From: Acidimicrobiia bacterium
Lineage (GTDB): Bacteria; Actinomycetota; Acidimicrobiia; Acidimicrobiales; Bin134
Reading direction: 5' to 3'
Length of the DNA: 64,000 bases
Assembly (NCBI GenBank): GCA_009843865.1
Contig: VYCQ01000023.1
Span: forward strand, 144,092 to 208,091
The notes below the pieces were generated by a model that was given only the letters and a program-made list of their open reading frames with translations, was not told the DNA's origin and ran no database searches. Of this stretch, positions 17,212-53,025 are shown piece by piece. The position numbers and the translations under genes are program-made. Each line of letters begins with the position of its first letter. The first letter of the stretch is position 1.

Positions 17212-17214
17212 TAG

Positions 17215-17847
17215 CTACGTCCTTGCTGATGGCTCGTTAGGCCGCAAGCTGGTTTTGAGCGATAACGACTTATTAAAAATACGCACTTTTACTTCGGTCA
17301 CCAGCGCGTCCATAATTATATCTTTTGAATGAGAAGCAACCTTCTCTACAAGCTGACACTCATAGGCTAAACCGATCACTAATGGCTTGGTTGGCCTCGG
17401 GTCGTCTAGCAAGAAAGACAGTGCTCGGTCATAGTAGCCCATACCTCGCCCAGCACGATATCCAGCTTCATCAAACAGCACCACTGGAGCAAAGATCATA
17501 TCTAACTCCTTAGCTGCTATGTACATTGTTGAATCCACATTTGGCTCATCAATACCATAACGATTGGGCACCAACGGAGTGTGGTTGTCGCTGTAAGCAA
17601 ACTGCATGGGTGCAGGATCGCACAGAACTGGCATACACACGGTTATGCCCCGCAGCCAGCAGGCACTTACCAGCGGAGCGGGATCCAGTTCACCGTCATG
17701 CACCATTGTGGCAGCCACTTTTCCAACACCGTCTAACCACTCTAGCGCAATAATTGCCTGCGCCACCGCTTCAGCAGCGCTAGTAGGGTCGGGGTGAGAT
17801 TTGCGGGCCTCCCTAGCTTGTGCCCGCATCTTGCTCAGGCTGACCAC
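17215..17847 (-). CDS. 5-formyltetrahydrofolate cyclo-ligase
   Basis: NRYGIDEP, PVVLFD, RAGRGMGYYDR, HSKDIIMD; TAATCT 6 nt before GTG at 17847 suggests a leaderless start. Confidence 0.9.
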   Translation of the reverse strand: MVSLSKMRAQAREARKSHPDPTSAAEAVAQAIIALEWLDGVGKVAATMVHDGELDPAPLVSACWLRGITVCMPVLCDPAPMQFAYSDNHTPLVPNRYGIDEPNVDSTMYIAAKELDMIFAPVVLFDEAGYRAGRGMGYYDRALSFLLDDPRPTKPLVIGLAYECQLVEKVASHSKDIIMDALVTEVKVRIFNKSLSLKTSLRPNEPSART

Positions 17848-17957
17848 CAACTCAGATTATCGCAATTGCCACAGTCTCAGACATCTTATGTGGCAGCCTT
17901 AGAAAGGCAAGTCTTGCCCCAATATTCTTGCTTCGTCAACAGATCAGGGAGTCAAAA

Positions 17958-20099: not shown

Positions 20100-20156
20100 A
20101 CCTAATGCTACTTGTGGTGTTAGCTATCGCTGTCGCTTAGACTAACTACTCACCTC

Positions 20157-21746
20157 ATGAAATATCTGGCAGCCAAATATCCTCGACGACAAATGCTGAT
20201 CGGATTACTACTCGCATTGGTCATGAGTGCTGTGGTGCCTGTTCATGCTTTTGCGCAACAAACTCAGCAGGATGTTCAAATTCTGCACCTCCAAATCTTG
20301 TACAGCGATGGGTTGATTTATCAGCAAGAAAAATTGCTCAACGCCTATCGTTGCAGGTTTAATATCGACACCATCGTGGTACCGGGAGGATGTCAAGACG
20401 GTGTGTCAGCAGTCCCGCTACCGGTACCACTGCCCTTTACAGGCATCCCTACGACAGAAGAAAAGATCTTGCGAGACAGCACCGTGTTGTCGCAGGAAAC
20501 CTTATTAAATGTCTACCGGTGCATGTTCAGCATTGATACTCAGATAGTGCCTCAAGGTTGTCCTGAGCGCAATCAAACAGCTGCAACGCCAATAACAAGT
20601 GGTGGCTCTTCTTCTAGCAGCGCTGGTAAGGTCGTTACGCCTTTGACCGACACCTCAAAGTGCAGCTTTGCCGACTATGCCACCAATGCGATAGATGCGG
20701 TTTGGCAAGTTCGTGCAGGTCAGAATCTAGGCACAGCTTTTCATCTGGGTCAATACGCTGAGCATTCTTGGTGGCTAACAGCTGAGCATGTGATACGTGA
20801 TGCCGGTTCAATACGACTTACTCACGGAGGACAAAGTCTTATAGCCCGCATCGTGCTAGCCGACCGAGGCGAGGACATTGCGGTGCTGTCCACATCTCCA
20901 TCAACGGCGGCTGAGCTTCAGCTAGGCGGGCTGAGCACTACAAGACCAGGTAGCGACATCTTCGCAGTCGGCTTCCCACTTTATGTGGCATCCACGCCAT
21001 CAATTACACGCGGTATCGTCTCAAGGGTACTTGAAGACCCAATTCTCGGCAGAGTTTTGCAAACAGACACCGCAGTGAACCCGGGAAATAGCGGTGGTCC
21101 CATGCTGAACTCATGTGGATATGTGTTAGGCATGGTGGTAAGCAAGGCAGCGGCAGTCGGCAGTGAGGGTATCAACTACTCGGTTATTGAGCCAAAGTTG
21201 TTAGATGCTCTCACATTTGCTCAAGCCGACCCCAATCAGTCGCCTGCTCCACCTTCTCCCCCTAAACCTGCGATAGGCGTAGATGCCCCTGGCCCGGGAG
21301 AATGGCAGCAAAGTAGCTATAGCAACGGTGATGACTACCTATGGCATGTGTACTACTTGGACGAAAATGGCAACGGGGCTGTCGTCTATGAGTTTCCTTG
21401 CGGTAAGGACTACTACAACCTGGCAATTTGGACCACACGCTGGGATGCCTTAGCACTTGACAATCTTGGATATATCCGTTTTTGGGAAGAATCAAGCCAG
21501 TCTACTGTCAGCTTTCTGCGAGCCAATGTGTCGCAACACACTAGCAATGGCGCAACCCGTTTTGCTCTACGCCGTGAGTTCAATACAGGGGCAGTTCAAG
21601 ATTCAGATCGCTCTTACCGCTTCTACTTCGAACTGTTGGACAGCTTCCAAAATCGTGGGGTGCTGTTGAGCTTTATTTCCTCACCAGCTCACACACAAAT
21701 GGTTGAGGAAGCCCTAACCGTTACACGTAGGGAAGTGGCCTGCTAA
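20157..21746 (+). CDS. Secreted trypsin-like (S1C) serine protease with two N-terminal Cys-containing modules and an unknown C-terminal domain
   Basis: Signal peptide ending AFA; TAEHV, DIAVL and GNSGGP catalytic triad; duplicated QExLLNxYRCxFxID..VPxGC module. Confidence 0.85.
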   Translation: MKYLAAKYPRRQMLIGLLLALVMSAVVPVHAFAQQTQQDVQILHLQILYSDGLIYQQEKLLNAYRCRFNIDTIVVPGGCQDGVSAVPLPVPLPFTGIPTTEEKILRDSTVLSQETLLNVYRCMFSIDTQIVPQGCPERNQTAATPITSGGSSSSSAGKVVTPLTDTSKCSFADYATNAIDAVWQVRAGQNLGTAFHLGQYAEHSWWLTAEHVIRDAGSIRLTHGGQSLIARIVLADRGEDIAVLSTSPSTAAELQLGGLSTTRPGSDIFAVGFPLYVASTPSITRGIVSRVLEDPILGRVLQTDTAVNPGNSGGPMLNSCGYVLGMVVSKAAAVGSEGINYSVIEPKLLDALTFAQADPNQSPAPPSPPKPAIGVDAPGPGEWQQSSYSNGDDYLWHVYYLDENGNGAVVYEFPCGKDYYNLAIWTTRWDALALDNLGYIRFWEESSQSTVSFLRANVSQHTSNGATRFALRREFNTGAVQDSDRSYRFYFELLDSFQNRGVLLSFISSPAHTQMVEEALTVTRREVAC

Positions 21747-21757
21747 CAAGTCGAACC

Positions 21758-22183
21758 TCAACTAGCGTGAGTTATAATCGTTCCTGCTATCACACCTGAG
21801 TTGGGGTTAATGTTGGTCAGCTTGAGAGCAATGAGCATGTGGAACTCTCCTTTGTGCGCATCGCTATCGCCTTGCACTGAGTGATCAATGCTCATGATCT
21901 TGCTGGCAATTGGCTTGTCGCCCACTTGCACTAGCACCTTGTCGCCCACTTGCACGCGCCCACAAATTGCCCGCCCTATTACGAAGAAGTCCTCTTGTGA
22001 CATAGCCTCGGTACGTATCACTTCAAATCGCAGCTTCTCCTTGCTACGTTGCCACCGCTTGAAGAAGGTCTTCCAATTATGGGGCTGATCTTCCCACTCC
22101 CCTTCCACAATTCCCAAATAATTTCCCATTATGGAAAAACTAGCGAAATGGGAGACAGACTTCGTAATTACCGACATACTCAC
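21758..22183 (-). CDS. Hypothetical protein; C-terminal half resembles an EF-Tu domain II-like beta-barrel
   Basis: FVIGRAICGRVQVGDKVLV...KIMSI...G.II pattern; contains an 18-bp internal duplication. Confidence 0.45.
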   Translation of the reverse strand: MSMSVITKSVSHFASFSIMGNYLGIVEGEWEDQPHNWKTFFKRWQRSKEKLRFEVIRTEAMSQEDFFVIGRAICGRVQVGDKVLVQVGDKPIASKIMSIDHSVQGDSDAHKGEFHMLIALKLTNINPNSGVIAGTIITHAS

Positions 22184-39349: not shown

Positions 39350-40234
39350 ATGAAGTTAACCAACAGCGTCGTTATCAGGTCTTTGGCACTGCTATTTGCC
39401 GTAGCTTTAGTTTGTATGGCTTGCAGCTCAGATAGCTCAACCGCGTCTCACACAGGGACACCTGTAACTAGCACGCCCAATCAAGCTCCAAGCGATATTA
39501 GCAGCGATCCAGCAACAACTTCACCCACCTCTGAAACCATGCAAGCTCAGACCCCTGTTCCTACTACTAGGGTTGAGCAGCCAGTACCTTTCGATCAGAG
39601 TCAAACCCCAGAGCCAGTTTCTGATTCTGCTGAAACACCAACACCGCAATCCGGGCAAAACTCTGCGCAGAACCCCTCAGCAACTCAAGCCCCAGAACCG
39701 CAAACAGAACCCCAGACCACCCCACCAACCGAGCAACAAGCTACGCCTCAACCCACCCCTACCAGGCCATTAGCTACACCATCGTCAAGCGCAACTCCCA
39801 CATCAAAACCAACACCAATCCCCGAATCGGATCTGCCATCCATCAACGTTATCAACGTTACCAGCGGCGCAACTGTAAACCTCGCAAGCTTTGCGCCAGG
39901 CCAAAAGCCCATTGTGTTGTGGTTTTGGGCACCCCATTGATCTACTTGCCGCCGGGAAGCATCCGGCCTCGAGCAGTTGGCTCGACAGAACAGCGACAAG
40001 TTCACCCTCATCGGCTTGGGGGCACAAGACAGCCTCTCGCACGCTGAGAGTTTCGTAAGCTCCACTGGTACTACCTTTACCATGCTTTGGGACTCATCAG
40101 GAGCCTCCTGGCGAGAGCTAAGTGTTTTTGGTCAACCCAGTTTGATCGTCATGGATCGCTATGGTCGCGAAACCGACCGCCGTGGTGGTGTTTCACCAAG
40201 TTGGATTCTGCACGCGATTGAAAACATTAATTAA
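39350..40234 (+). CDS. Putative selenoprotein: lipoprotein TlpA/DsbE-like thioredoxin with UxxC active site (UGA at 39938-39940)
   Basis: ORFs 39350-39940 and 39977-40234 share one frame; read-through gives WFWAPH-U-STCRREA...GQP, a complete thioredoxin fold; signal peptide with MAC lipobox and P/T/Q-rich linker. Confidence 0.8.
39951..39967 (+). promoter_or_regulatory. Candidate bacterial SECIS hairpin
   Basis: GCCGG-GAAGCAT-CCGGC starts 10 nt after the in-frame UGA. Confidence 0.6.
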
Positions 40235-40245
40235 ATAATCTCAGA

Positions 40246-41292
40246 TCAGACAAACGGCAACTTCGCCACCTGAGCAGGCACCTCGGTGCCTCGCATGTTT
40301 AATGCCACAGCATCACCAACTTGTACATTGGGAGACATAAAAGCCAAAGCGATACCGGTTTCCAAAGTGGGTGAAAAATTGCCTGAGGTGACCTCGCCAA
40401 TAACCTGCTTGTGGCGCATCACCTGTTGACCTTGTCTAGGTGGACGACGCCCTTCAACGATCAAACCCCTTAAGCGACGAGCAACACCACGGTCCTTCTC
40501 AGCGAAAAGTGCCTCACGTCCCTTAAACGTTGGTTTATTCCAACTCACCACCCAACCCAGCCCGGCCTGCAATGGGGTGATGGCTGGGCCTAACTCGTGT
40601 CCGTGTAAGGGAAACCCTGCCTCTAAACGTAAGGTGTCACGCGCTCCCAACCCCGCCGGAACAATGCCCGATGCAAGCAACGCATCCCAAAGCCGCGAAG
40701 CCGCCTCTTGCGGTACTGCAATCTCTACACCGTCTTCACCGGTGTAACCAGTACCTGCCACCATGAGTTCCACCTCCTCCCACCGAACAGTTGTCACGCA
40801 ATTACGTTTAACCGCAGCAGCGCCGGGGCAAACCGAAGCCAACTGTTGCCTAGCTTGTGGTCCTTGCACTGCAAGCAGGGCTCTAGTAGCAGTAACATCT
40901 ATACCACCCACCACAGCACTCACCCGCTTGGTGTTAGATGCGTTAGGTATCACCTCAAAACTCTGTTCAGCCACCCACCAAACAATGATGTCATCCATCA
41001 CAGAGCCATCGTCTTCTAGCAGATGTGTGTACTGGGTTTGACCGGGGCCAATCTTGCTCAGATCGTTCGTCAAGGTCTTTTGCAAACGAATAAATGCATC
41101 AGCGCCAACTACCTGAAGTGTCCCCAGATGACTTACGTCAAACACCACCGCAGTGGTGCGACAGGCCCTGTGTTCTGCCAAGGTTCCCGAAGGGTAGGAC
41201 AAAGGCATCTCCCATCCCCCAAATGGCACCATCTTGGCGTAGAGCTTGCGATGGTCGCTGTCTAACACAGACAAGCGCACCTCGGCCCCCAC
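40246..41292 (-). CDS. gcvT: Glycine cleavage aminomethyltransferase T
   Basis: MVPFGGWEMP, FDVSHLG, TGYTGEDGVE, GLGARDTLRLEAG. Confidence 0.97.
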   Translation of the reverse strand: MGAEVRLSVLDSDHRKLYAKMVPFGGWEMPLSYPSGTLAEHRACRTTAVVFDVSHLGTLQVVGADAFIRLQKTLTNDLSKIGPGQTQYTHLLEDDGSVMDDIIVWWVAEQSFEVIPNASNTKRVSAVVGGIDVTATRALLAVQGPQARQQLASVCPGAAAVKRNCVTTVRWEEVELMVAGTGYTGEDGVEIAVPQEAASRLWDALLASGIVPAGLGARDTLRLEAGFPLHGHELGPAITPLQAGLGWVVSWNKPTFKGREALFAEKDRGVARRLRGLIVEGRRPPRQGQQVMRHKQVIGEVTSGNFSPTLETGIALAFMSPNVQVGDAVALNMRGTEVPAQVAKLPFV

Positions 41293-41645
41293 TAGCTTCT
41301 ACCGGCGCAAGTTAGGTTGCCTTGGGTGCCCGAGGTGTCTTCAAACCCATATTTGGTTAACAAATTCTGATAGTCCCGCTGACACAACACCATCAAATCC
41401 ACCTCGGGATAAGCTTCGCGAAGTCGACGTACCTTAGCATTCTTGCGTGTGATGTATTTTTGGCGGGTGGTGGTGATTTCCACATAGCGGTCAAATCTCG
41501 GAAGGTAGAAGTCTGGAGTGAAAGCCTCTGTTACCTCACCCAATTCATTGCGAGCGAGCACAAAGGTTGTGGGTTCATAGCTCCACTCAATGCCATAAAA
41601 GTCCAGCAACTCTGCGAACTGCCGTTCAGAGTTGTGGGCGAACAC
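41292..41645 (-). CDS. Small PD-(D/E)xK-like nuclease-fold protein
   Basis: SERQFA..LD..GI.W.YEP, FTPDFYLP, YVEITT; its stop overlaps the gcvT start. Confidence 0.65.
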   Translation of the reverse strand: MFAHNSERQFAELLDFYGIEWSYEPTTFVLARNELGEVTEAFTPDFYLPRFDRYVEITTTRQKYITRKNAKVRRLREAYPEVDLMVLCQRDYQNLLTKYGFEDTSGTQGNLTCAGRS

Positions 41646-41676
41646 GCTAGCTGCTCTCTGCTAGCCCAAGATTGGT

Positions 41677-42198
41677 CTAGCTGCCAGTTTGACTAGCCGG
41701 TTGCTGGTTTATCCGAAACGAGTCATTAGAAGCGACACCTTTGATGTTACTCCGATCGCCAGCAGCTTCAACAGGCAACTTCTGAACCGCAGCATCTACC
41801 TGCTGCACCAGATCATCCATGGGTAAGTACAGAGCTCCTTGACCTTGGCGCAACGCGTCTAAGAGCTGCTCATCAGTGCGTACTAGCAACGACTTCTTGC
41901 CTTTGATCACCAAATCGGCACTGACCAAATCCTCGCCTAGTTCATGGCGCACATAGTCAAACACCTCACGCACTCGCTGCAACCCAATGCCTTCATCCAT
42001 CAATCTTTTAATAAGCTTCAACTCCAGCAAATCCCGGTAAGAGTAGCGGCGCCGACTACCACTACCGATTGCTTTTTGGGCAGTAGAGGTGACCAAACCC
42101 GTGCGGGTCCAATAGTCCAACTGCCGGTAAGTAATACCCACAATTGCAATGGTCTGAACCGAGCTGAAGTCACTGGCTACCTGTTTGTAGACGGTCAT
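41677..42198 (-). CDS. MerR-family regulator (Rv1830-like)
   Basis: GITYRQLDYWTRTGLV, GSGSRRRYSYRDL, LDALRQGQG; GGGAGG RBS. Confidence 0.9.
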   Translation of the reverse strand: MTVYKQVASDFSSVQTIAIVGITYRQLDYWTRTGLVTSTAQKAIGSGSRRRYSYRDLLELKLIKRLMDEGIGLQRVREVFDYVRHELGEDLVSADLVIKGKKSLLVRTDEQLLDALRQGQGALYLPMDDLVQQVDAAVQKLPVEAAGDRSNIKGVASNDSFRINQQPASQTGS

Positions 42199-42298
42199 TT
42201 GATCCTCCCAGGTATAGATGAGAACAGGTATCAGCGAAGAACGAACGAGCCCTTCGCATTTTGATTACATCAAAGAAACTACGCCCTTGATGTTCTTC

Positions 42299-42327
42299 AG
42301 GCTAGAACTCTGCCTGTGAATTGTCAA
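42299..42327 (-). promoter_or_regulatory. SigA-type promoter TTGACA-17nt-TAGCCT for the merR-nuclease-gcvT unit
   Basis: -35 at 42327-42322 and -10 at 42304-42299 on the minus strand. Confidence 0.65.
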
Positions 42328-42346
42328 GGGTTGTGAACTGGCTGAT

Positions 42347-42844
42347 TCAGCCGTTGAAATCCTCAGGGTTAACTTGATCTAGGAACTCTCTAAACTGATC
42401 TAGCACCTCTTCGGGAGGTTCATCTTCAGAATCTAATGGCATATCCGCCACATGACCTGCTGCCGCTAGAACCTCTTCAGAGGCAAAAATTGGTGCCCCA
42501 GATCGCACCGCTAAAGCAAATGCATCAGAAGGACGACTCGAGATGCGCCGCTGTCCATTAGCATCTGCGAATTCCAGCTCGGCAAAAAAAGTACGTTCCC
42601 GCAACTCGGTCACGATAATGCGTTCCAAACGCACACCTAGGTCATCCAACACGTTCTTAAACAAGTCGTGGGTCATTGGGCGTGGTGTTTCTACCTCTTC
42701 TAATGCCAGAGCAATTGCCTGAGCTTCGGTACCACCAATGAAAATGGGTAACAGGCGGGCTCCCCCGTTAACTTCGCGGAGCAAAACAATGGGCGCGTTG
42801 GTTGGTAACTCAACACGCACTCCGATGAGTTCCATCTCAATCAT
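42347..42844 (-). CDS. Bifunctional nuclease family protein (BFN/DUF151, Rv1829-like)
   Basis: LPIFIGGTEA, PRPMTHDL, SSRPSDAFALA, FREFLDQVNPEDF; ATG at 42844. Confidence 0.92.
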   Translation of the reverse strand: MIEMELIGVRVELPTNAPIVLLREVNGGARLLPIFIGGTEAQAIALALEEVETPRPMTHDLFKNVLDDLGVRLERIIVTELRERTFFAELEFADANGQRRISSRPSDAFALAVRSGAPIFASEEVLAAAGHVADMPLDSEDEPPEEVLDQFREFLDQVNPEDFNG

Positions 42845-42854
42845 CGTTGCCAGG

Positions 42855-43412
42855 CTAGTAGAGGACAGACACAAAGGCATCCGGGTCAGCAGCCAAGCTT
42901 GCCGGATGGCAGATGAACAGATCTTGAAGATTGCGGTAGCGGCCCAACCAGTCCAATCCATAGCCCAAGAAAAACTCGTCTGGCACCTCAAAGGCTACGT
43001 AGTCAGGCACCAAGGGCAATATCCGGCGAGCCTTGCGATCTAACAAGGTGGCTACCGACACCGAAGCTGCCGAACGACGTTGCAACTCCTCCACCAGGTA
43101 GTTGAGGCTTAAGCCGGTGTCAACGATGCCCTCGACCAGCACAATCTCGCGACCGGTCACGTCCTGATTCAAATCTTTCAAAAGCCGCACGCGCCCCGAG
43201 TCTGGTGCAAATCGGTTCAGAGCTAAAAAATCAATCTCTACTTCAATATCGAGTGCTTTTGCTAGATCAGCCAAAAACAATAGGCTGCCCTTGAGCACCG
43301 AAACCAGCACTGTGCCGTTTGAGCGCTCCGCTGAAATTTGCTGCGCTACTCGTACAACGGCAGCGGCGATTTCGTTCTTGCTGGCAAACAGCTTCAATGG
43401 TGCGACCTGCAC
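42855..43412 (-). CDS. HPRT-like phosphoribosyltransferase with degenerate active-site motifs
   Basis: VLKGS..FLADL and GYGLD..YRNL are HPRT-like, but VEGIVDTG replaces VEDIVDTG and NRF replaces the SY loop. Confidence 0.8.
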   Translation of the reverse strand: MQVAPLKLFASKNEIAAAVVRVAQQISAERSNGTVLVSVLKGSLLFLADLAKALDIEVEIDFLALNRFAPDSGRVRLLKDLNQDVTGREIVLVEGIVDTGLSLNYLVEELQRRSAASVSVATLLDRKARRILPLVPDYVAFEVPDEFFLGYGLDWLGRYRNLQDLFICHPASLAADPDAFVSVLY

Positions 43413-43418
43413 GAGAAA

Positions 43419-44252
43419 TTAAGGATTTTGAGTATGGTTGGCTAAAGCCATCCGCAAAAGTGATAAGCGCAACTCCGAGCCAAGGTCAATCAACTCCTCT
43501 AACATGTCCTGACACTTATGTCGGGCCGACTGAGTGTGCAGCATGGCTAGCGGCCTGATTCGCCGCTCTAACAAATCAGCCTCATGTTCTACTGCGGTCT
43601 TGTAAATACGCAGATGACGAGGTTCTACTCCATGCTGATTCAAAAAGGCCGCTACGGTCTTAGCCACGATCACCGCCTCGGGGCTGTAATGCAAGTTGTG
43701 CCCATTGTCGATCTTCTCAATAAGGCCGAACTGCTCAAGCTCAGAAATCCGACCCACCAGCAACCCGCTAGCCGCAACCAACTCATCGACAGTTAGCGGC
43801 CCTATAGTTCCCCCTATAGCTCCTTTTGCAGTCCTTTTTGAAGTCTCTTGTGGACTTAGGTTTCTAGCATTACTTGAGGGTTTAGAGCGAGATGCACGCT
43901 CAGAAGTCTTCAAGGTATTGCGTGTCGGCTTGCGTCGAGTGCTCGCTTTTGGCACATCGCGGCTGAGCTGTGGTTCAGCAAACTGTTCCTCAGCCAAGCT
44001 TGCACCAAAATCTTTGGTGTCGATTAACTCTTTGATTACCTTGAGGGGCAGGAAATGGTCACGCTGTTGCTCCAAAATCCAACGTAAGCGATTCACATCT
44101 GCTTCTGTGAATTTGCGATAGCCAGATTTGGTGCGGTCTGGGTCTATCAAACCTTGGCTCTCCAAAAACCGGATTTTGGAGATGCTGATGTCTTTGAACT
44201 CATCCTTCAACAAATCCAAAACCTGCCCAATGGAACGATGTGGGCTGCTCAC
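43419..44252 (-). CDS. MerR-family regulator (FtsR/Rv1828-like)
   Basis: SIGQVL..L..EF.DISISKIRFLESQGLI, RTKSGYRKF, QRDHFLPLKVI, GVEPRHLR. Confidence 0.9.
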   Translation of the reverse strand: MSSPHRSIGQVLDLLKDEFKDISISKIRFLESQGLIDPDRTKSGYRKFTEADVNRLRWILEQQRDHFLPLKVIKELIDTKDFGASLAEEQFAEPQLSRDVPKASTRRKPTRNTLKTSERASRSKPSSNARNLSPQETSKRTAKGAIGGTIGPLTVDELVAASGLLVGRISELEQFGLIEKIDNGHNLHYSPEAVIVAKTVAAFLNQHGVEPRHLRIYKTAVEHEADLLERRIRPLAMLHTQSARHKCQDMLEELIDLGSELRLSLLRMALANHTQNP

Positions 44253-44752
44253 TGGCCCGTTCCATCTTGGTAGAACAACTTAAAACGACCCACCTGCAAC
44301 TCATCACCGTTTTTAAGGCCAACATCTTCCACCCGACGACTGTTGAGGTAAGTACCGTTTAGCGAACCCATATCTTTCACTCTGCGTACCAACCCATCTC
44401 TATAAATCTCTGCATGGCGGCGTGAAACGGTGATGTCATCCAAGAAAATTCGGGAGTCGCCATGTCGTCCAATGGTCACCAAATCTTCCGATAGTTCAAA
44501 GCGGCTCCCCGCAGCTAGTCCTTCAGTAATCACCAACACCGCAGGGTGGCGAAATAACTCAGCGTCAAGCTTAAGCTCAGTAGTGGGTTCACCCGCTGAC
44601 GTGCCTGCTTGTAAGTCACAGTTGGTCTTCACTAAACGGACACCACAGGCGGCGCAGAAGTTGGCACCATGCTCGTTAATGTGGCCGCGCAACTTGCAAG
44701 GCACCTGCTCATCATCTGCTGGTGTTGCATCTGGACGGGGGTCGGAGATCAC
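44249..44752 (-). CDS. FHA domain protein with N-terminal zinc-ribbon-like segment (GarA/OdhI-like)
   Basis: C..GH.N...ANFC..CG, EPTT, IGRH...IFLDDITVSRRHA, GSLNGTY; position downstream of gcvH. Confidence 0.88.
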   Translation of the reverse strand: MISDPRPDATPADDEQVPCKLRGHINEHGANFCAACGVRLVKTNCDLQAGTSAGEPTTELKLDAELFRHPAVLVITEGLAAGSRFELSEDLVTIGRHGDSRIFLDDITVSRRHAEIYRDGLVRRVKDMGSLNGTYLNSRRVEDVGLKNGDELQVGRFKLFYQDGTGQ

Positions 44753-45144
44753 TCCACGCTCTCCGTAAGTTGAGAATAAGCAGCGCCGTCCATGAGTTGA
44801 TCCACCTCAGATAAATCAGTGGTCTCAATCACGCAGATCCATCCCTCGCCATAGGGGTCTTCGTTAAGGCGCTCCGGGTGATCTACAAGATCAGAGTTAA
44901 TTTGCGCTATCACCCCTGACACTGGGGCGTAGATTTCGGAAACTGATTTTGTTGATTCCACCTCACTAAAAGCTTCACCTTTGTGTACCGCAGTGCCCAC
45001 TTCCGGCAAATCAATGTAAACCACATCGCCAAGGGCATCTTGCGCGTAGTCAGTGATGCCCAAATAAACACGATTACCTTCAATTTTAGTCCATTCGTGG
45101 TCTTCGGAGTAGCGAAGTTGGCTTGGAACATTGAAGGTCTGCAT
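44749..45144 (-). CDS. gcvH: Glycine cleavage H protein
   Basis: YSEDHEW, GITDYAQDALGDVV, lipoyl motif VESTKSVSE, DPYGEGW. Confidence 0.97.
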   Translation of the reverse strand: MQTFNVPSQLRYSEDHEWTKIEGNRVYLGITDYAQDALGDVVYIDLPEVGTAVHKGEAFSEVESTKSVSEIYAPVSGVIAQINSDLVDHPERLNEDPYGEGWICVIETTDLSEVDQLMDGAAYSQLTESVE

Positions 45145-45182
45145 CTGCTATAAAGTACCCGCTCGCAGTCAAAGTCTCAACC

Positions 45183-45803
45183 TCAACTTGAGCTTGTTTG
45201 ACTAGATGCCTGATTAGCACGCCCTTCGGTGAGGGCTTGACGTGCCTGAGGAATGTACTGAATAGCAGCGTAATAGCTGAGCGCTAACGACAATATAGCG
45301 ATGCCCCATCCCACACTACGCAAGGCCACTCCTCCACCTACATTAGAATTTCCCAACAACAAAAGCGGCAAGGCAAACATGAGACCGAAAGTGGCTGTTT
45401 TGCCTGTCCATGTGACATCCATGCGCCTTGCTCCCAGTGCTGCCAGAATCAGCACTACCAACGACACCGCGGCCTCTCGCATCAGCATCAGCACCCCAAA
45501 GACTAAGTGCAATGAACCATCTATGAGCATTGCTGTAACAGCGGCTAAGAACATGAGCCGATCGGCAGTGGGATCTAAAATCTTACCCATTTCGGATTCT
45601 TGTTTGAAGCGTCTAGCGATGAACCCATCCACCCAATCGGTAGCGCCTAATACACCAAGCAAAATAGCTGCTCCTACCCGATTGCCCATAGCCAGCAACA
45701 AAACACAAAAAAACGGCACGCACCCCAAACGTAAGCCTGAAATAAGGTTGGGAATTGTGGCTAGGTTAGACGTAATTTCAACCCGCCATTGGTTGCTGCT
45801 CAT
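45183..45803 (-). CDS. CDP-alcohol phosphatidyltransferase (PgsA2/cardiolipin synthase-like)
   Basis: TIPNLIS..R, TDWVDGFIARR, GKILDPTADR. Confidence 0.92.
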   Translation of the reverse strand: MSSNQWRVEITSNLATIPNLISGLRLGCVPFFCVLLLAMGNRVGAAILLGVLGATDWVDGFIARRFKQESEMGKILDPTADRLMFLAAVTAMLIDGSLHLVFGVLMLMREAAVSLVVLILAALGARRMDVTWTGKTATFGLMFALPLLLLGNSNVGGGVALRSVGWGIAILSLALSYYAAIQYIPQARQALTEGRANQASSQTSSS

Positions 45804-45874
45804 GGGTTACAGACTAGACAGGTCGACGCTAAGTGAGTCATCGCAACCACCGCTTACAAAGGTAACCTTACCGA

Positions 45875-46279
45875 ATGCCCAGCGTGTTTACGAAGATCAT
45901 GAACAAAGAGTTGCCAGGTCATTTTGTCTGGGAAGACAAAGATTGCATTGCCATCTTGAGCATCAATCCTATTCAAACAGGCCATGCGTTGGTGATCCCT
46001 CGTGTTGAGGTTGATCACTGGCTAGACGTTCCACCACAACTAGCAGCGCATCTGTTCTTAGTGGCCCAAAAGATTGGACATGCGCAAAAAGCAGCCTTTC
46101 GGTCCCCCAGGGTAGGGCTCATCATTGCCGGAGAAGAGGTGCCTCACACTCACCTTCATGTGATCCCTATGTTTAACATCGCCGACCTCAATTTCGCTCA
46201 CGCTAAAACCTCAATCCCCCCTACAGACCTAGCCGCCACTGCCCAACTCCTACAATCTCACTTATCCTCGACCTCCTAA
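45875..46279 (+). CDS. HIT family nucleotide hydrolase
   Basis: SVFTKI, GHALVIP, EVPHTHLHVIP. Confidence 0.93.
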   Translation: MPSVFTKIMNKELPGHFVWEDKDCIAILSINPIQTGHALVIPRVEVDHWLDVPPQLAAHLFLVAQKIGHAQKAAFRSPRVGLIIAGEEVPHTHLHVIPMFNIADLNFAHAKTSIPPTDLAATAQLLQSHLSSTS

Positions 46280-46304
46280 CACCAAGCACTTATTTTTCAA
46301 GCAC

Positions 46305-46790
46305 TTATTTTCTTTGTGTAAAAGAAATAGCCAGCCAGCGTCCATTAAGAGGAAAAACCACTAGCTGAGACATGGCATCCACCAAAAACATCAGCACGTT
46401 TTTTGGGTCTTGACCTTCGGGTAGCTCATAAACCAAACCCCGTTTGATGTGGTCTTGCCGACGATGCCAACCGTCTGGTTCAATCACACCCCGCTCTTCT
46501 AGCAATTTGGTGGCTCCGCCCCCTCCCCCATGCTGCAAACCCACACACGCCGGTTGCCACTTATTTCGTTTATGGTGGCCAGGCACCCAGGTGCCCAGCG
46601 GGACAGCAGGGCCTCTAGCTGTAAACCACTTGAATAAAGGCGGCTCAGCAGGACGATCTTCCTCAGCTACTAAGGGCTGCACATTCAACCAGCCAGAACC
46701 ATCACCCCGAACAGCTAGAGCTAACATTTCATGGACCACTTCGTCTAGCTCTGTAAGGTCAAAGCGAATGTGATGCAGATCAAGTGCCAT
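46305..46790 (-). CDS. Conserved hypothetical protein
   Basis: Fills the gap between HIT and ETF; GWLN, ARGP.VP..TWVP and QDH.KRGLV look like conserved motifs; start uncertain. Confidence 0.55.
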   Translation of the reverse strand: MALDLHHIRFDLTELDEVVHEMLALAVRGDGSGWLNVQPLVAEEDRPAEPPLFKWFTARGPAVPLGTWVPGHHKRNKWQPACVGLQHGGGGGATKLLEERGVIEPDGWHRRQDHIKRGLVYELPEGQDPKNVLMFLVDAMSQLVVFPLNGRWLAISFTQRK

Positions 46791-46876
46791 AACTACAAAA
46801 GCCAACCCTAATTCATTTTGACCTTGCCAGTAACCTCCACGCGTATGGCCATGCACACCTCACAAACAACCTTGCT

Positions 46877-48865
46877 GTGACAACACCTTTTAGTCAACCT
46901 GCTCAGGTAATTGCCCCTGATCGTGTTTTGCGTGTGGCGGTATTGGCCAAGCAAATTCCGGCGTTTGAAAACATGATGCTAAACCCCGACGGTCGTCTAC
47001 TGCGAGACGGGGTGGGCATGCATATAAACGACTACTGCCGACGAGCAATCGCCAAGGGCACCGAGGTGGCCAGAGTCAGCGGTGGTACCGTCACAGTGTT
47101 TACCTTGGGACCTCCTGTAGCTGAAAACGTGTGCCGAGAAGCCATCTTGTTTGGTGTGGATCAGACAATTCATATCTGCGATCCAGCCTTTGCTGGCTCT
47201 GATACCCTGGCTACAGCTAAAGCTCTCGCAAGAGCACTAGAGCATTTTGGGCCATTTGATTTGGTGTTCATGGGCCGGAACTCGGTGGATGCCGACACCG
47301 GACAAGTGCCGCCGCAGCTTGCAGAGATGCTGAAATTACCTTTTGCCGCAGGCGTGCGCTGTTTCTCACTTCATGGAGAACAAACTGAACTTCGTCTAGA
47401 ACACGACGACCGATGGGTGGATGTAACCGTACAGCTACCCGTTGTGCTGTCGTGTGCGGAACGGCTCTGCGAGCCTTGCAAGATCAAAGACCCAAGGGCT
47501 TGGGCTACAGTGGATGCTTCGCTTATTCAAACCTGCAAAGCTGCTGAATTGGGCACGGGGCCATGGGGTCAAGCAGCTAGCCCCACTTCGGTAGGCGCAG
47601 TTCATAGCCTAAAAGTGCAACGTAAACGCCGCATGCTAAGCGGCACCATTGAACAGCAGGTAGCCGAGGCAGCCGCGATTTTCGCCGACCTAGGAGTGTT
47701 GGATTCTAGCAACGCTCCTAATCCAGGTACCGTGGTTCATACAACAACACTGATTCATGCAACAAGCAACACTGCTACAGACACAATCACTACTACAGAT
47801 ACAAATAGCGCAACCGACAACGCTGGGGTTGTCGTGCTCGCAGAACCAGGCAAAGATCGTATCAACAAAGAGTTGCTAGCTACAGCAGCCGAATTGTCCT
47901 GTGAGGTTGGTGGCAGGGTTACCGCCATTGGTCCGGGCCTAGATAATCCTGATCTGGAACTTGGCCCGTGGGGAGCCGATCAGCAGATTGCAATCACCGC
48001 CAGCAACGGCTCCATGAAGATAATGTCAGAAAAAATAATGTCAGAAGAGATTACGTTTGAGAAGATTGCGGCAGAAGATGTGGCTATAGCCATCACCAAG
48101 TGGATCAGCAACACGCTACCTTGGGCAGTGCTAGCACCAGGCACTATATGGGGTCGTGAAGTAGCTTCACGCATAGCAGCTACCCTCAACGCAGGACTGA
48201 CTGGCGATGCTGTAGAACTGCGTATAAACGACCAAGGCAGGCTAATCGCCATGAAGCCAGCTTTCGGGGGTTCGATGCTGGCAGAAGTTCTTTGCTCCTC
48301 ACCCATACAAATGGTTACGGTACGTCCCGGGGTGCTGCCCTATCGTCATCCAAATCTCAAACGACCTGAAGCCAAACGAAGCGTGTTACCATCACCAGCA
48401 CACAGCCGCATGAAGATCGTGGCTACTCATACCACAGATGACAGCACCGAGCTAGCGAATGCATCTGTGGTAATCGGCGTAGGCCAAGGGGTAGATCCAA
48501 AAGACTATCCAAAGCTGGAACAGCACCGACGCGCTATTGGCGCTACTCTGTGCGCCACCCGCAAAGTGACCGATAACGGCTGGATGCCCCGAGCCCGCCA
48601 AGTAGGTATCACCGGCCATAGCATCAGCCCACAGCTTTATCTGGCCATCGGTACCAGCGGCAAGTTCAACCATACCGTGGGAGTGCGCAACGCTGGCATT
48701 GTGGTGGGTATCAATTCCGATCCCACCGCACCTTTGTGGGATGTGGTGGACATCGGCATCGTGGGAGATTGGGCCGAGGTGTTAGATGCTCTGATTCCGC
48801 GTCTACTATCAAATAGAACAACAGACAATGGCACTAGTGCGATCATCAGCTCACCTATTAATTAA
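46877..48865 (+). CDS. Fused electron transfer flavoprotein beta+alpha subunits
   Basis: N-half AFAGSDTLATA, GRNSVDADTGQV (ETF-beta); C-half KPAFGG, RQVGITG, LYLAIGTSG, INSDP.AP (ETF-alpha). Confidence 0.9.
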   Translation: MTTPFSQPAQVIAPDRVLRVAVLAKQIPAFENMMLNPDGRLLRDGVGMHINDYCRRAIAKGTEVARVSGGTVTVFTLGPPVAENVCREAILFGVDQTIHICDPAFAGSDTLATAKALARALEHFGPFDLVFMGRNSVDADTGQVPPQLAEMLKLPFAAGVRCFSLHGEQTELRLEHDDRWVDVTVQLPVVLSCAERLCEPCKIKDPRAWATVDASLIQTCKAAELGTGPWGQAASPTSVGAVHSLKVQRKRRMLSGTIEQQVAEAAAIFADLGVLDSSNAPNPGTVVHTTTLIHATSNTATDTITTTDTNSATDNAGVVVLAEPGKDRINKELLATAAELSCEVGGRVTAIGPGLDNPDLELGPWGADQQIAITASNGSMKIMSEKIMSEEITFEKIAAEDVAIAITKWISNTLPWAVLAPGTIWGREVASRIAATLNAGLTGDAVELRINDQGRLIAMKPAFGGSMLAEVLCSSPIQMVTVRPGVLPYRHPNLKRPEAKRSVLPSPAHSRMKIVATHTTDDSTELANASVVIGVGQGVDPKDYPKLEQHRRAIGATLCATRKVTDNGWMPRARQVGITGHSISPQLYLAIGTSGKFNHTVGVRNAGIVVGINSDPTAPLWDVVDIGIVGDWAEVLDALIPRLLSNRTTDNGTSAIISSPIN

Positions 48866-50207
48866 AACAGCGGCTTGGTTAACCATAGCTGGAATCATCA
48901 CCGCTAGTGCCTGCGGGTCGGAATCCAGCAGCAATCTTGTCCCGTCCATCCCTATCACTACCACCAACGGCTCTGCTCCCACGCCTGTAACTGAAATGCA
49001 TGACCCATCATCTGCTCCCAATAAAACCTTTCTAAGCCCCGTATTTCAACCTAACGGCAACCGCTTAGCCCAAGGATCAGGTTTAGCCACGGGTTTTATT
49101 CAAGAAGTCACCACCAAAGACATTGAATTGAACGGCATCCCCACCTGGATTACCGGTGCAAGCACCCCAACGGGTGACCTATGGGTCATAGCCCTCAACG
49201 ATGGGTCACTTCTTAGCTATCAAGTGCCCATTGGCGAACAACCACTTACTGCAACAGTTCCAGTTGATCGCCTCAAGGCACATCAACCCCCTGTCCTCCA
49301 AGTAGCAGACAATTTGGTACGTTTAGTAACTACACCCGTCAACGCCTCGGCCAACAGCATCGCTGTACATCTAGCTGGAGAACGAACGGCCTACATAGAC
49401 AACCTACATCGGCTCACCGTCCTAGAACCTGACGGCAACTTGTGGCGACCTGACATTGAGGTATTACCCGATAGCAGGCTAGTACAGCTCAATAAAGAGC
49501 AGATATTGGTGCTAGCCAACCCCACTAATCGTCACCCTTATTCAGCACTAGGCGACGACCTTGAAGCCACGACGGTTGTAAAGGTAACCGTTGGCAGCAA
49601 TGAGGTGACCACCATCTATAACTCAGGAGAGACTGTTATTGAATCCATTGCGCCATTACTAGCTGATATGGATGGCGATGGAACTGCTGAAGTAGCACTT
49701 ACCTTGAGCGACGCAACTCATATATGGTCGGTGTTAGTTTCTACCACTGGCTCAGGAGAAATTGCCCGAAGCGAGCCCGTTGACCGGCTTTTGGGCTGGC
49801 GTCATATCTTGGCATTAGGACCTTTGGGTCCTAATGGGCAGATCCAACTTGCAGAGGTGCTGTATCCCGACGGACAAGGCAACTTGGTTTTTTTGCAAAA
49901 ACAGGGCAACTCCCTAGAGGTGGCAGCTTCCCTAAAGGGTTATCGTTCCCACGAGTTTGGCTCTCGCAATTTAGAGCAGGCTCTAGCCGCAGACCTAGAC
50001 CGCGACGGCCATATAGAAGTAATCGTACCCACATTAGATCGCCAAAACATTGCCGCTGTTCGTAACACCCCTGAGGGTGCAACAGAGCTGTGGCGACGAT
50101 CAATAGGGGGCGCTTTAGCCACCAACATTGCTGTTATTGAGCGACCTGACGGCACCTTGTCGCTAGCAGTAGCGACAAACCAAGGCACTCTACGCATCTG
50201 GCAATAA
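48828..50207 (+). CDS. Lipoprotein with FG-GAP/VCBS-like Ca-binding repeats (probable beta-propeller)
   Basis: Lipobox ASAC, ADMDGDGTAE and ADLDRDGHIE motifs, LGDDLEA, H.FGSRNL. Confidence 0.7.
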   Translation: MALVRSSAHLLIKTAAWLTIAGIITASACGSESSSNLVPSIPITTTNGSAPTPVTEMHDPSSAPNKTFLSPVFQPNGNRLAQGSGLATGFIQEVTTKDIELNGIPTWITGASTPTGDLWVIALNDGSLLSYQVPIGEQPLTATVPVDRLKAHQPPVLQVADNLVRLVTTPVNASANSIAVHLAGERTAYIDNLHRLTVLEPDGNLWRPDIEVLPDSRLVQLNKEQILVLANPTNRHPYSALGDDLEATTVVKVTVGSNEVTTIYNSGETVIESIAPLLADMDGDGTAEVALTLSDATHIWSVLVSTTGSGEIARSEPVDRLLGWRHILALGPLGPNGQIQLAEVLYPDGQGNLVFLQKQGNSLEVAASLKGYRSHEFGSRNLEQALAADLDRDGHIEVIVPTLDRQNIAAVRNTPEGATELWRRSIGGALATNIAVIERPDGTLSLAVATNQGTLRIWQ

Positions 50208-50276
50208 ACAGCACCTAAAAGTACACAGTAGTGAGGCGATCTTGTATCTTCAAAGCGTGCCCATTGTCTTCGCAAT

Positions 50277-52661
50277 ATGCCTGAATCTAGCGTGAGCAGC
50301 CCTAGCTATAGTGCTCAGGCTACCGGCGATCCTGCACGCGGACTTACCCAACAACAGGTGGCTGAACGGATAGCCAGCGGTCAAACCAATCAGGTGCCCG
50401 ACGCGCCGGTACGGACGCTATCGCAGATCTTGCGAGCTAACTTGTTTTCTCCAGTCAACGGAATCATGTTGGCCTTGTTCTGCGTCATTTTGATTGCCGG
50501 TTACCCACGAGACAGCCTGTTCGTTGGAGTGGTGGTATCCAACGCTGTGATTGGGGTCGTCCAAGAAATCAGAGCTAAACGCGAACTAGACCATCTGACG
50601 GTGCTAAGCGCCCCTAAAGCCAAAGTAGTGCGCGACGGCGAAGTGCTAGAAGTTGAAGTGAGTGAGGTTGTAGCTGACGAAGTTTTAGAAGTTACCTCAG
50701 GCGATCAGATTGTGGTGGATGGCAAGGTTCTAACAACCTCAGGCTTAGAAGCTGATGAATCGCTGCTCACAGGTGAAGCTGATCCCATTGAAAAACAGGT
50801 AGAAGATAAGCTGCTCTCAGGCAGCTTCGTAGCCGCGGGTAACGGGCGCTATCAGGCAACTCATATCGGGGCAGATTCATACGCTAGCTCACTATCAGAA
50901 GAAGCCCGTCGCTTCACCCTGATTAACAGCGAGTTGCGACGGGGCATCAACACCGTGCTGCGCTGGCTTATCGTAATCATTCCACCTGCTTCTGCTCTTT
51001 TAATCTTGGTCTTGATCGACACCGAGGAGCGTTGGCAAGAAGCTTTACAGGGTACCGTAGCTGCTGCTGTTGCTATGGTTCCCGATGGCTTGGTGCTGCT
51101 CACAAGCCTGTCTTTTGTGGCTGGTGTAATAGCATTAGCTCGTCGCCATGCTCTAGCCAAAGAACTCGCCACAGTGGAACTGCTCGCTCGAACCGATGTG
51201 CTCTGTTTAGATAAGACAGGAACCATCACCACCGGTCAGATCAGCTTTGGGGATGTAGAAGTTCTTTCTGACAATGACTTAATCGAGGCGACAACAGCGC
51301 TAGCTGCCATGGCCAATGCCGACGAAGCACCTAACGCCACTATGTTGGCTGTGCGCGACGCTTACACGATGCCAAGCAATTCCAGCGAGTCTTGGCAACC
51401 ATTGAGCACCATGGCGTTTTCCAGTGCCCGCAAATGGTCGGCAATGGAATTTGTAGGACGTGGCACCTACTACTTCGGCGCTCCAGACGTGATGGCTAGC
51501 GAAAGACATGATGTGATGCAAAGCGTGATCACACATGCCAACGCTGGCAAACGAACCTTGTTGCTGGCTCACAGCTCTGAACCCTTAGTTAGCGACGAGT
51601 TACCAACAGCTCTGAACCCTTTGGCTCTAGTGCTTCTTGAAGACACAATTCGCCATGATGCCCCCGAAATCTTGGCATTCTTTGAGCGACAAGGCGTACA
51701 CCTCAAGGTAATTTCGGGCGACCACACCGCTACCGTTGCCTCAGTGGCGCAGCGCGCTGGCATTCCTAACGCTACAGCCAGCATAGATGCTCGTGAGTTA
51801 CCGGAAAATCCCAAACAAATGGCTGATTGTTTAACATCCAACACAGTATTTGGCCGCGTCACCCCGCACCAAAAACGTTCTATGGTGAACGCATTGCAGG
51901 CCAAAGGACACACGGTTGCTATGACCGGTGACGGTGTTAACGATGTGCTAGCACTAAAAACCGCAGACATGGGAATCGCTATGGGCAGCGGTTCAGCTTC
52001 CACTCGAGCAGTAGCTCAGCTAGTGCTGCTAGACAACTCTTTCGCCAACTTACCAGAGGTGCTAGCGCAAGGGCGTAAGGTGATCAACAACGTGGAACGG
52101 GTGGCTAATCTATTTGTCACCAAAGCTTCCTACGCAGTGCTGCTAACCATTCTCGTAGGCATCTTCACCGTAGAATATCCGTTCTTGCCTCGACATCTCA
52201 CCTTAGTGGGAACGTTCTCTATCGGCGTACCTGGCTTATTTTTGGCATTAGCACCGAGCACGGAACTCATCAAATCAGGCTTCTTGCGGCGAGTACTTCA
52301 ATTCTCAATTCCTGCTGGGTTTTTAGCAGGAACCGCATCTTTTTTCGCCTATGAAATAGCTCGTCGCCACGAAGAGGTCACTTTGGCAGAAGCTCGCACC
52401 GTCGCTACCTTGACCCTGCTAGGTGTAGGGCTGGTGATATTGGTGGTGATTAGTCGTCCCCTGCGTCCATGGAAAATTGGCTTAGCTGCGGCCATGGCTG
52501 GCTCCTACTTGTTGGTGATGGTGTGGCCCTTTGCACGTAACTTTTTTGAGCTAGATGCTCCTCCAATGTGGATGTGGGGCCCAACTATCGTCGCAATAGC
52601 CGTCGCCGGTACAGGGGTAATCATGATCCCCCGCGCGCTACGAAGATACAACAATCACTAG
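50277..52661 (+). CDS. P-type ATPase, CtpE-like cation transporter
   Basis: DESLLTGE, VPDGL, DKTGT, ISGD, TGDGVND. Confidence 0.93.
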   Translation: MPESSVSSPSYSAQATGDPARGLTQQQVAERIASGQTNQVPDAPVRTLSQILRANLFSPVNGIMLALFCVILIAGYPRDSLFVGVVVSNAVIGVVQEIRAKRELDHLTVLSAPKAKVVRDGEVLEVEVSEVVADEVLEVTSGDQIVVDGKVLTTSGLEADESLLTGEADPIEKQVEDKLLSGSFVAAGNGRYQATHIGADSYASSLSEEARRFTLINSELRRGINTVLRWLIVIIPPASALLILVLIDTEERWQEALQGTVAAAVAMVPDGLVLLTSLSFVAGVIALARRHALAKELATVELLARTDVLCLDKTGTITTGQISFGDVEVLSDNDLIEATTALAAMANADEAPNATMLAVRDAYTMPSNSSESWQPLSTMAFSSARKWSAMEFVGRGTYYFGAPDVMASERHDVMQSVITHANAGKRTLLLAHSSEPLVSDELPTALNPLALVLLEDTIRHDAPEILAFFERQGVHLKVISGDHTATVASVAQRAGIPNATASIDARELPENPKQMADCLTSNTVFGRVTPHQKRSMVNALQAKGHTVAMTGDGVNDVLALKTADMGIAMGSGSASTRAVAQLVLLDNSFANLPEVLAQGRKVINNVERVANLFVTKASYAVLLTILVGIFTVEYPFLPRHLTLVGTFSIGVPGLFLALAPSTELIKSGFLRRVLQFSIPAGFLAGTASFFAYEIARRHEEVTLAEARTVATLTLLGVGLVILVVISRPLRPWKIGLAAAMAGSYLLVMVWPFARNFFELDAPPMWMWGPTIVAIAVAGTGVIMIPRALRRYNNH

Positions 52662-52693
52662 CCCTGATTACCCACTAATAAATATTGACCCGT

Positions 52694-52734
52694 ACCCCAC
52701 AAGCAACGCTGCGGGGATAGCTGCTTAGGGGGGG
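52694..52734. terminator. Hairpin between the convergent P-type ATPase and Rdx genes
   Basis: CCCC..AAGCA...TGCTT.GGGG imperfect inverted repeat. Confidence 0.35.
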
Positions 52735-53025
52735 TTAAGACCCGTAAACAGGAACCCCTTGGGCATATTTGACAGCGAACAAATCAACAACCTCACCCGG
52801 ATGAGCATGACGATTAGTAGCATCTTTGGAATAGAGCATCTCGCCGTTTACCTCCACATCGAAAATACCTGAGGTGCCGGTTATCAAGTACACTTTTTCA
52901 ATGATGTGCTGGTACTTCTTTAGTAAATCGTTAGCAGCGCTCACGGCGTGCTCGGAATAGTCTCAAGGGACACAGTAAATGATGGAAATGCTGTGTTTAT
53001 TTGTCATGGGGGATTCCGGACTCAT
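52735..53025 (-). CDS. Putative selenoprotein: Rdx (SelW/SelT/SelH-like) with CxxU motif (UGA at 52965-52963)
   Basis: Upstream in-frame extension reads MSPESPMTNKHSISIIYCVP-U-DYSEHAVSAANDLL...GTSGIFDVEVNGEMLYSK; TAGTAT 6 nt before ATG at 53025. Confidence 0.85.
52933..52952 (-). promoter_or_regulatory. Candidate bacterial SECIS hairpin
   Basis: AGCA-CGC-CGTGA-GCG-C-TGCT starts 10 nt after the in-frame UGA. Confidence 0.55.

Follow-up and report, generated by a model that had tools for sequence, protein, structure and literature searches.

Two in-frame UGA codons of an Acidimicrobiia genome are probable selenocysteine codons in known selenoprotein families with a general bacterial SECIS

Bacterial selenoproteins, in which a UGA codon is read as selenocysteine (Sec, written U in protein sequences), have been catalogued in marine metagenomes since 2005-2008, and these catalogues hold all four of the families treated below, as judged from the parts of the two surveys available to us (PMC1088965, PMC2398784). 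In those parts, SelW-like proteins with a CxxU motif are the most abundant selenoprotein family of the Sargasso Sea and Global Ocean Sampling (GOS) data, and SelD, Prx-like/Trx-like proteins with UxxC, and arsenate reductases with UxxS are among the main marine families. A table in the accessible portion of a 2026 review (PMC13188914) lists a 'Prx-like thiol:disulfide oxidoreductase PF00578 UxxC, UxxU', a 'Redoxin family PF08534 UxxC', and a 'Selenoprotein W-like PF10262 CxxU, 1 Sec'. The same portion gives the consensus for the bacterial Sec insertion sequence (bSECIS), a model of Zhang and Gladyshev that the review quotes: a hairpin with a loop of 3-9 nt, a stem of 4-16 bp, a spacing of 16-37 nt, a minimum free energy (MFE) of no more than -7.5 kcal/mol, and a G at loop position 1 or 2, with G or U as the usual next base. 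Here we describe two UGA codons with downstream hairpins in a 64,000-nt stretch of a bacterial genome of the class Acidimicrobiia (hereafter, the window; positions 144092-208091 of contig C11 in assembly G000). Site 1 lies within a gene for a TlpA/redoxin-like thiol:disulfide oxidoreductase, and site 2 lies within a SelW-like gene of the Rdx family.

The reading that we favor, to which we give a probability of about 85%, is that both UGAs are Sec codons in two ordinary, known selenoprotein families, with a general bacterial SECIS and not a lineage-specific one. A first-pass annotation of the window had proposed site-specific Sec recoding with a downstream hairpin at both positions, and this part of its account is supported. 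Each of its two hairpin strings occurs once in the window, at 39938-39967 on the + strand and at 52965-52933 on the - strand, and each TGA is in frame with open reading frames (ORFs) on either side. At site 1, reading the TGA as U joins the ORF at 39350-39940 to that at 39977-40234, yielding a protein of 294 aa with Sec at residue 197 (U197). The features of the two sites, together with two further genes found elsewhere in the genome, are collected in the table.

Table. Positions of the predicted selenoprotein genes, Sec codons, and hairpins (window coordinates unless an assembly and contig are given)
Feature	Position	Strand	Basis
TlpA/redoxin-like thiol:disulfide oxidoreductase selenoprotein gene (site 1)	39350..40234	+	frame open through TGA; Pfam domains span U197
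Predicted Sec codon UGA of the UxxC redox motif	39938..39940	+	TGA at the aligned position in 66/66 mapped TlpA-like sites
Hairpin 1, GCCGGG-AAGCA-UCCGGC, 10 nt past UGA (the hairpin of the first-pass annotation)	39951..39967	+	RNAfold; helix 1 of alignment A1
Hairpin 2, UCGAGC-AGUUG-GCUCGA, loop starting 34 nt past UGA	39969..39985	+	folding; helix 2 of alignment A1
Rdx/SelW-like selenoprotein gene (site 2), 96 aa from first ATG	52735..53025	-	open frame through TGA; Pfam Rdx spans U
Predicted Sec codon UGA of the CxxU motif	52963..52965	-	TGA in 35/35 mapped sites in relatives
Candidate SECIS hairpin AGCACGC-CGUGA-GCG(C)UGCU	52933..52952	-	RNAfold; alignment A2
ArsC-like selenoprotein gene	G000:C36:46744-47157, TGA 46834	+	PF03960 (E 3.7e-11) spans U
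SelD selenoprotein gene, U17	G000:C41:10574-11695, TGA 11647	-	one in-frame TGA

The predicted Sec residues occupy redox motifs of two well-defined kinds. The site 1 motif reads W-A-P-H-U-S-T-C, and the Pfam models AhpC-TSA (E 2.5e-11), Redoxin, and Thioredoxin_8 all match above their cut-offs across U197; with these domains and its UxxC motif, the protein is like the Prx-like/Trx-like/redoxin selenoproteins. The NCBIfam models for TlpA, ResA, DsbE, and StoA all score far under their cut-offs (the best, TIGR00385, at 34.8 bits vs 123; the TlpA model NF047696 at 19.4 bits vs 230). Because it matches broad Pfam families and none of these named equivalogs, we call the protein TlpA/redoxin-like rather than TlpA. 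It also differs from the TlpA-ResA-DsbE type in its N-terminal part, where inspection by eye finds a hydrophobic, lipoprotein-like leader followed by a long, low-complexity linker rich in Pro, Thr, Ser, and Gln. At site 2 the motif is C-V-P-U, in the context YCVP-U-DY. The Rdx model PF10262 spans the U with 55.8 bits (cut-off 22.6; E 5.3e-15), and TIGR02174, the 'SelT/SelW/SelH family', matches with 40.7 bits (cut-off 34.2); in the alignment, U takes the place of the second Cys. The equivalog NF041051 remains under its cut-off (66.6 vs 88). The window gene is like other SelW-like (Rdx) CxxU selenoproteins, with nothing unusual about it; most of its congeners differ from these in having UxxU. 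In relatives the SelW-like gene starts at a Met that lies seven residues in, at position 53007.

The positions of both TGAs are conserved among related Acidimicrobiia, which include 'Candidatus Poriferisocius', Ilumatobacteraceae, and the Sva0996 marine group. With the TlpA-like protein as query, 34 of 36 same-genus genomes have a match with an in-frame TGA, and there are usually two copies in tandem; in the other two genomes (G014 and G017), partial matches end short of the Sec position. Sec forms of this gene are also present in several other families of the order, which contribute 11 of the 66 mapped sites. The SelW-like query matches in 39 of 61 related genomes (34 of the 36 in the same genus), each time with an in-frame TGA. 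When the best 80 SelW-like loci are taken, with one genome per species, 79 have TGA at the second redox position, and the remaining one is CxxC. Most congeners have a tandem pair of TlpA-like genes separated by about 600 bp, and both members of the pair have a Sec TGA and hairpins of their own (loci L053-L079). The genome that contains the window has a single Sec copy plus distant Cys paralogues.

The source genome is an Acidimicrobiia metagenome-assembled genome of 1,785,529 bases in 43 contigs, 98% complete and near 'Candidatus Poriferisocius', which bears out the first-pass assignment of the sequence to an actinobacterial host. At 1.79 Mb it is smaller than the 36 same-genus genomes (2.2-4.1 Mb, mostly ~3.5 Mb), and this may reflect either a reduced genome or an effect of binning. 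The genome has the Sec-decoding trait, with selA, selB, selD, and tRNA-Sec all exceeding curated cut-offs: selA (398 bits) and selB (296 bits) adjoin each other on one contig, selD scores 339 bits and itself carries one in-frame TGA, and a tRNA-Sec is found by Rfam (68.9 bits), with the anticodon TCA according to ARAGORN. The SelB protein (572 aa) contains the domains GTP_EFTU, GTP_EFTU_D2, and Beta-barrel_SelB, and ends in a C-terminal SelB-wing_3 domain (residues 523-567, E 1.3e-14); its best-matching relatives in the PDB are the bacterial SelB structures 4zu9 and 5lzb. Judged by its domains, SelB is of the canonical bacterial type, with a predicted SECIS-binding winged helix. Comparison of this C-terminal domain had been suggested as a way to recognize a lineage-specific signal, and it gives no sign of a form peculiar to the lineage.

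By analogy with the established bacterial Sec pathway, SelB carrying Sec-tRNA(Sec) and GTP would bind the mRNA hairpin just past the UGA through its C-terminal winged-helix domain and would deliver Sec to a ribosome that has this UGA in its A site, while other UGAs would remain stops. At site 2 the signal would be one hairpin whose loop, CGUGA, lies 17 nt past the UGA, essentially in the geometry of E. coli fdhF. At site 1, where two hairpins follow the UGA in tandem, SelB would bind hairpin 2, whose loop is AGUUG. Sec insertion itself is what we infer from the pathway and the sequences together.

For comparison, E. coli K-12 fdhF was taken from NC_000913.3, and the 48 nt from its Sec UGA were folded. 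The fdhF spacer is 11 nt, the upper stem begins at nt 15, and the loop, GGUC, occupies nt 22-25 and ends 22 nt past the UGA. At both window sites the spacer is 10 nt and the upper stem begins at nt 14, with the loop at nt 20-24 in site 1 and at nt 21-25 in site 2. As in the window, the fdhF hairpin lies within the coding region directly past the Sec UGA, and its GU (nt 23-24) is found one position from that of the SelW-like gene (nt 22-23). However, the sequences are unrelated, and RNAfold gives fdhF a long lower stem that is not present in the window hairpins. In addition, site 1 differs from fdhF by a loop, AAGCA, without GU and by an extra GU-loop hairpin 34 nt from the UGA. A rule of 11-nt spacing in E. 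coli was sought in PMC10778597 and was not found there. The first-pass annotation had described a 10-nt spacer and an apical loop ending 22 nt past the UGA at both sites. The spacer holds, since the RNAfold hairpin begins 10 nt past each UGA. The loop end is as described at site 2; at site 1 it is correct for the hairpin as drawn in that annotation, and RNAfold places it at 21 nt.

The site 2 hairpin has a stem formed by nt 14-20 and 26-33, with 3 + 4 pairs and one bulged C, and closes the CGUGA loop at nt 21-25. It conforms to the loop, stem, and spacing rules of bSECIS and to the loop-G rule (G in second position, then U). Conservation was examined in codon-anchored, ungapped alignments of distinct 48-nt sites, with 24 rows for SelW-like genes (A2) and 40 rows for TlpA-like genes (A1); the rows of each include kin, and the pairing and covariation figures that follow are indicative and are not probabilities. 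In A2, 81% of cells are paired, vs 12-44% in controls with slid partners, and 3 of 7 pairs show double changes. The shuffle control is weaker, with the observed covariation score reached by 33 of 500 shuffles. All 24 rows have GCCGU at nt 19-23, and C-G to U-A and A-U to G-C exchanges occur in the stem. Among the individual loci of the two genes, clear compensatory exchanges are found in L022 (C-G to U-A), L042 (A-U to G-C), and L065 (G-C to U-A), some of them accompanied by amino-acid changes. A strict form of the stem rule (for SelW-like sites, 4 bp + bulge + 2 bp) is failed by 3 of 32 SelW-like and 10 of 57 TlpA-like sites. Conserved hairpins had been expected in orthologues if the signal were real, and both hairpins are indeed kept, with compensatory changes, within the genus and also in other families of the order. 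Rfam at gathering thresholds gives no matches over the whole window, a result that is uninformative because such short hairpins match no Rfam family.

Two explanations that deny either the Sec codons or the general nature of their signal can be weighed against these data. It is most improbable that the TGAs are real stops in split, decaying, or mis-assembled genes, or that TGA has been reassigned throughout the genome: the bare presence of a stop codon is all that speaks for such a history, and against it TGA is kept at every mapped orthologous site across genera, the two TGAs take the exact place of the redox-active Cys in two thioredoxin-fold families, and the genome has a complete Sec machinery. 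Genome-wide reassignment was rejected outright, as TGA is the commonest ordinary stop, ending 348 of the 791 ORFs with a length of 300 aa or more. It also ends 17 of the 55 scored ORFs in or overlapping the window (one of these being the upstream piece of the TlpA-like gene), and, as the first-pass annotation had pointed out, gcvH, an SbcC-like ATPase gene, and ilvD terminate at TGA. That annotation had gone further and had taken the geometry common to the two sites, a 10-nt spacer containing CUA(C/U)U and a loop end at 22 nt, as a minimal SECIS form of the lineage's own, marking a large, hidden selenoproteome. The spacer and loop end do recur at both window sites, and hairpins with 5 or more pairs and a loop end at nt 25 follow just 41 of 749 ordinary TGA stops, compared with 1192 of 20000 random TGAs. 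Yet E. coli fdhF has the same geometry, which lies inside the bSECIS consensus (PMC13188914, in the portion cited above), and the other two of the genome's four Sec codons, those of SelD and the ArsC-like gene, lack a hairpin there; their hairpin loops lie at other distances from the UGA. The CUA(C/U)U element does not survive as a signal either: it is found in the spacer of only 1 of 40 distinct TlpA-like sites, the window's own, the others having mostly CCCACCUGCC. In SelW-like sites it is found in 18 of 24, where it corresponds to the codons for Asp/Asn-Tyr-Ser, and its presence at both window sites is codon-driven chance. With a canonical SelB and just four selenoprotein genes found, a signal peculiar to this lineage is very unlikely.

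For site 1, the alternatives concern which of the two hairpins SelB would bind. RNAfold draws hairpin 1 with a stem of nt 14-19 and 25-30 and the loop AAGCA; opening of the G.U closing pair gives the 7-nt loop GAAGCAU of the first-pass annotation. Its spacing (16 nt) and stem (6 bp) are inside the bSECIS range. It departs from that model, as quoted in the accessible text of the review, by the loop-G rule, since the loop is AAGCA here and AAGCC in most orthologues, and it would satisfy this rule only if the closing G.U or G-C pair were opened. Hairpin 2 conforms to the model throughout, with a 5-nt loop, AGUUG, that has G second and then U, a stem of 6 bp, and a spacing of 34 nt; folded together, the two hairpins have an energy of -17.1 kcal/mol. 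In alignment A1, 82% of cells are paired, vs 32-41% in the slid-partner controls, both sides have changed in 7 of 14 pairs, and none of 500 shuffles reaches the observed covariation score. Of this, hairpin 1 is 75% paired, with four pairs changed on both sides, and hairpin 2 is 91% paired, with three. Within the genus the figures are 91% for hairpin 1 and 97% for hairpin 2, and outside it, in other families, 61% vs 76%. Of 57 TlpA-like sites examined, 47 distinct ones have a GU-loop hairpin, and in 44 of these the best motif is a GU loop that starts at nt 38. All of the more distant Sec genes of this type, including those that have lost hairpin 1, retain a hairpin farther downstream whose loop is GGUC, AGUUN, or AGGUG. 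The SelD gene has the same two-hairpin layout as the TlpA-like gene: its UGA is followed by tandem hairpins (loci L291-L320), of which the first has a variable loop. The second, GCGCA-GGUCN-UGCGC with its loop at nt 36, recurs in all 20 of the distinct sites in congeners. Given its better pairing, its agreement with every consensus rule, the retention of a loop of this kind in more distant homologues, and the like layout of SelD, hairpin 2 has somewhat the better claim to be the SelB-binding SECIS of site 1. That hairpin 1 is the SECIS instead, with hairpin 2 an accessory or a by-product of the conserved VEQ(F/L)AR codons, seems rather unlikely, even with its E. coli-like distance, its covariation, and a loop that begins with G once the closing pair opens; a smaller share of the probability belongs to both hairpins acting together. 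If hairpin 2 is bound, hairpin 1 may be an accessory or a structural neighbour.

Several observations weigh against the view that both UGAs are Sec codons with ordinary bSECIS hairpins, or against its details. The site 2 hairpin is weak, with an MFE of -7.7 kcal/mol over 48 nt that is barely within the consensus limit, and single-sequence folding energies are ordinary compared with shuffles at both sites (z of -1.0 for site 1 and -0.1 for site 2). Among the 76 distinct SelW-like sites of the 80 wider loci, 21 fail the strict stem rule, although the CGUGA core is kept. In site 1, hairpin 1 also covaries and stands at the E. coli distance, and thus it may be the functional one. The GU-loop rule is passed by just 8 of 23 distinct ArsC-like sites in congeners, most of which bear a CUCGAG-AUC-CUCGAG hairpin instead. 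Finally, the count of four selenoprotein genes is a lower bound, since families without a Pfam model, Sec residues near protein termini, and genes at contig ends would escape the scan. The notion that a GU loop is common to all Sec sites was upheld only in part. In this genome, a hairpin with an early GU in its loop, 16-37 nt from the UGA, follows 4 of 4 Sec UGAs vs 89 of 749 ordinary TGA stops, and the figure of 8 of 23 applies to the ArsC-like sites of the congeners.

The size of the selenoproteome was estimated by a scan of the whole genome, beginning with 8443 in-frame TGAs that have an upstream start and an open downstream frame. A gene-structure filter, which asks that the frame contain a scored sub-ORF and that the TGA not be covered by a better gene, passed 324 of these; at least 4 codons before the TGA, at least 8 after it, and a Pfam domain spanning the U were also demanded. 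Pfam was run on translations of the 324, with TGA as U, in three sets of 108, which gave 0, 4, and 1 ORFs with U-spanning domains. Two of these five were rejected as sub-threshold: L109:6327-6680, with weak coiled-coil matches (Fez1, HAP1_N, ATG16) all under their cut-offs, and L113:18845-19216, with Methyltransf_25 at 26.2 bits against a cut-off of 27. The remaining three are the TlpA-like, SelW-like, and ArsC-like genes, and SelD, found separately, is the fourth. In agreement with this, independent whole-genome family scans that read through stops gave 6 matches for AhpC-TSA, one of them with an in-frame TGA; 4 for Thioredoxin and 1 for Molybdopterin, none with a TGA; and no matches for CMD. 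Scans based on codon-usage log-odds and on a 3-periodic, 4th-order Markov model were dropped as too noisy: known positives fell under the local coding thresholds because the SECIS region distorts coding statistics. We conclude that the 1.79 Mb of this genome probably contain about four selenoprotein genes, all in catalogued families, and that two of these lie inside the window. The large selenoproteome of the first-pass annotation is not supported by this count.

The two genes outside the window are likewise conserved. The ArsC-like protein, whose locus is also recorded as L154:1-411, has the motif IYHNPG-U-GSS (UxxS); its TGA is kept in 34 of 36 same-genus genomes, and Cys forms are found in more distant families. 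The SelD TGA is kept in all 36.

The SelW-like genes of the congeners show a further arrangement. In 25 of 30 same-genus loci (L023-L041, L043-L046, L048, and L049), TGA is present at both redox positions, giving UxxU, and among the best 80 species-representative loci there are 54 CxxU, 25 UxxU (L188, L190, and 23 others within L181-L260), and 1 CxxC; the window's own gene is CxxU. The two UGAs of a UxxU locus are 9 nt apart and are followed by a single hairpin at a distance of 26 nt for the first UGA and 17 nt for the second, and both values are within the consensus range. A UxxU form of SelW-like proteins has no entry in the table of PMC13188914, in the portion of that review available (which gives CxxU, 1 Sec), within a check of the literature that was not exhaustive. 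Such a protein could contain a putative diselenide. In one locus, L046 (G028:C1), a TAA replaces the Tyr codon just before the UxxU motif, which probably marks a pseudogene or a sequencing error peculiar to this genome. The best candidate loops in the genome that contains the window are 17, 23, 32, and 34 nt from their UGAs. We tentatively suggest, as a possibility short of even odds, that SelB-dependent decoding in this lineage may tolerate a wide range of UGA-to-loop distances, that one SECIS may serve two UGAs, and that the tandem hairpins might form a bipartite SECIS.

The surroundings of the window genes can be described briefly. The TlpA-like gene has trpC, for indole-3-glycerol phosphate synthase (IGPS), and gcvT on either side, and the neighbours of the SelW-like gene encode a P-type ATPase and a periplasmic binding protein. 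Between the two sites, at 46877-48865 (+), an ORF of 662 aa contains two electron-transfer flavoprotein (ETF) domain stretches and an ETF_alpha FAD-binding domain, which suggests that the beta and alpha subunits of this flavoprotein are fused. Elsewhere in assembly G000, at C1:~13000-22000 and C1:5597-13178, there are many short ORFs with a recurring GGSVGPPFIEA (MKGGPTDPPN on the other strand). These ORFs adjoin cas1, cas2, and a cas gene of the GSU0054 family, and they look like a translated CRISPR repeat array.

The finding is one of known families with a known signal. Its value lies partly in annotation, since standard gene callers will split or truncate both window genes and also those for the ArsC-like protein and SelD; the TlpA-like, SelW-like, ArsC-like, and SelD genes should be annotated as selenoproteins. 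A neat geometry common to a pair of Sec sites does not by itself imply that a recoding signal is new, and here it is the classical spacing of the E. coli type. What might be of interest to selenium biology lies outside the window, in SelW-like genes with UxxU from sponge-associated congeners and in the tandem hairpins of the TlpA-like and SelD genes.

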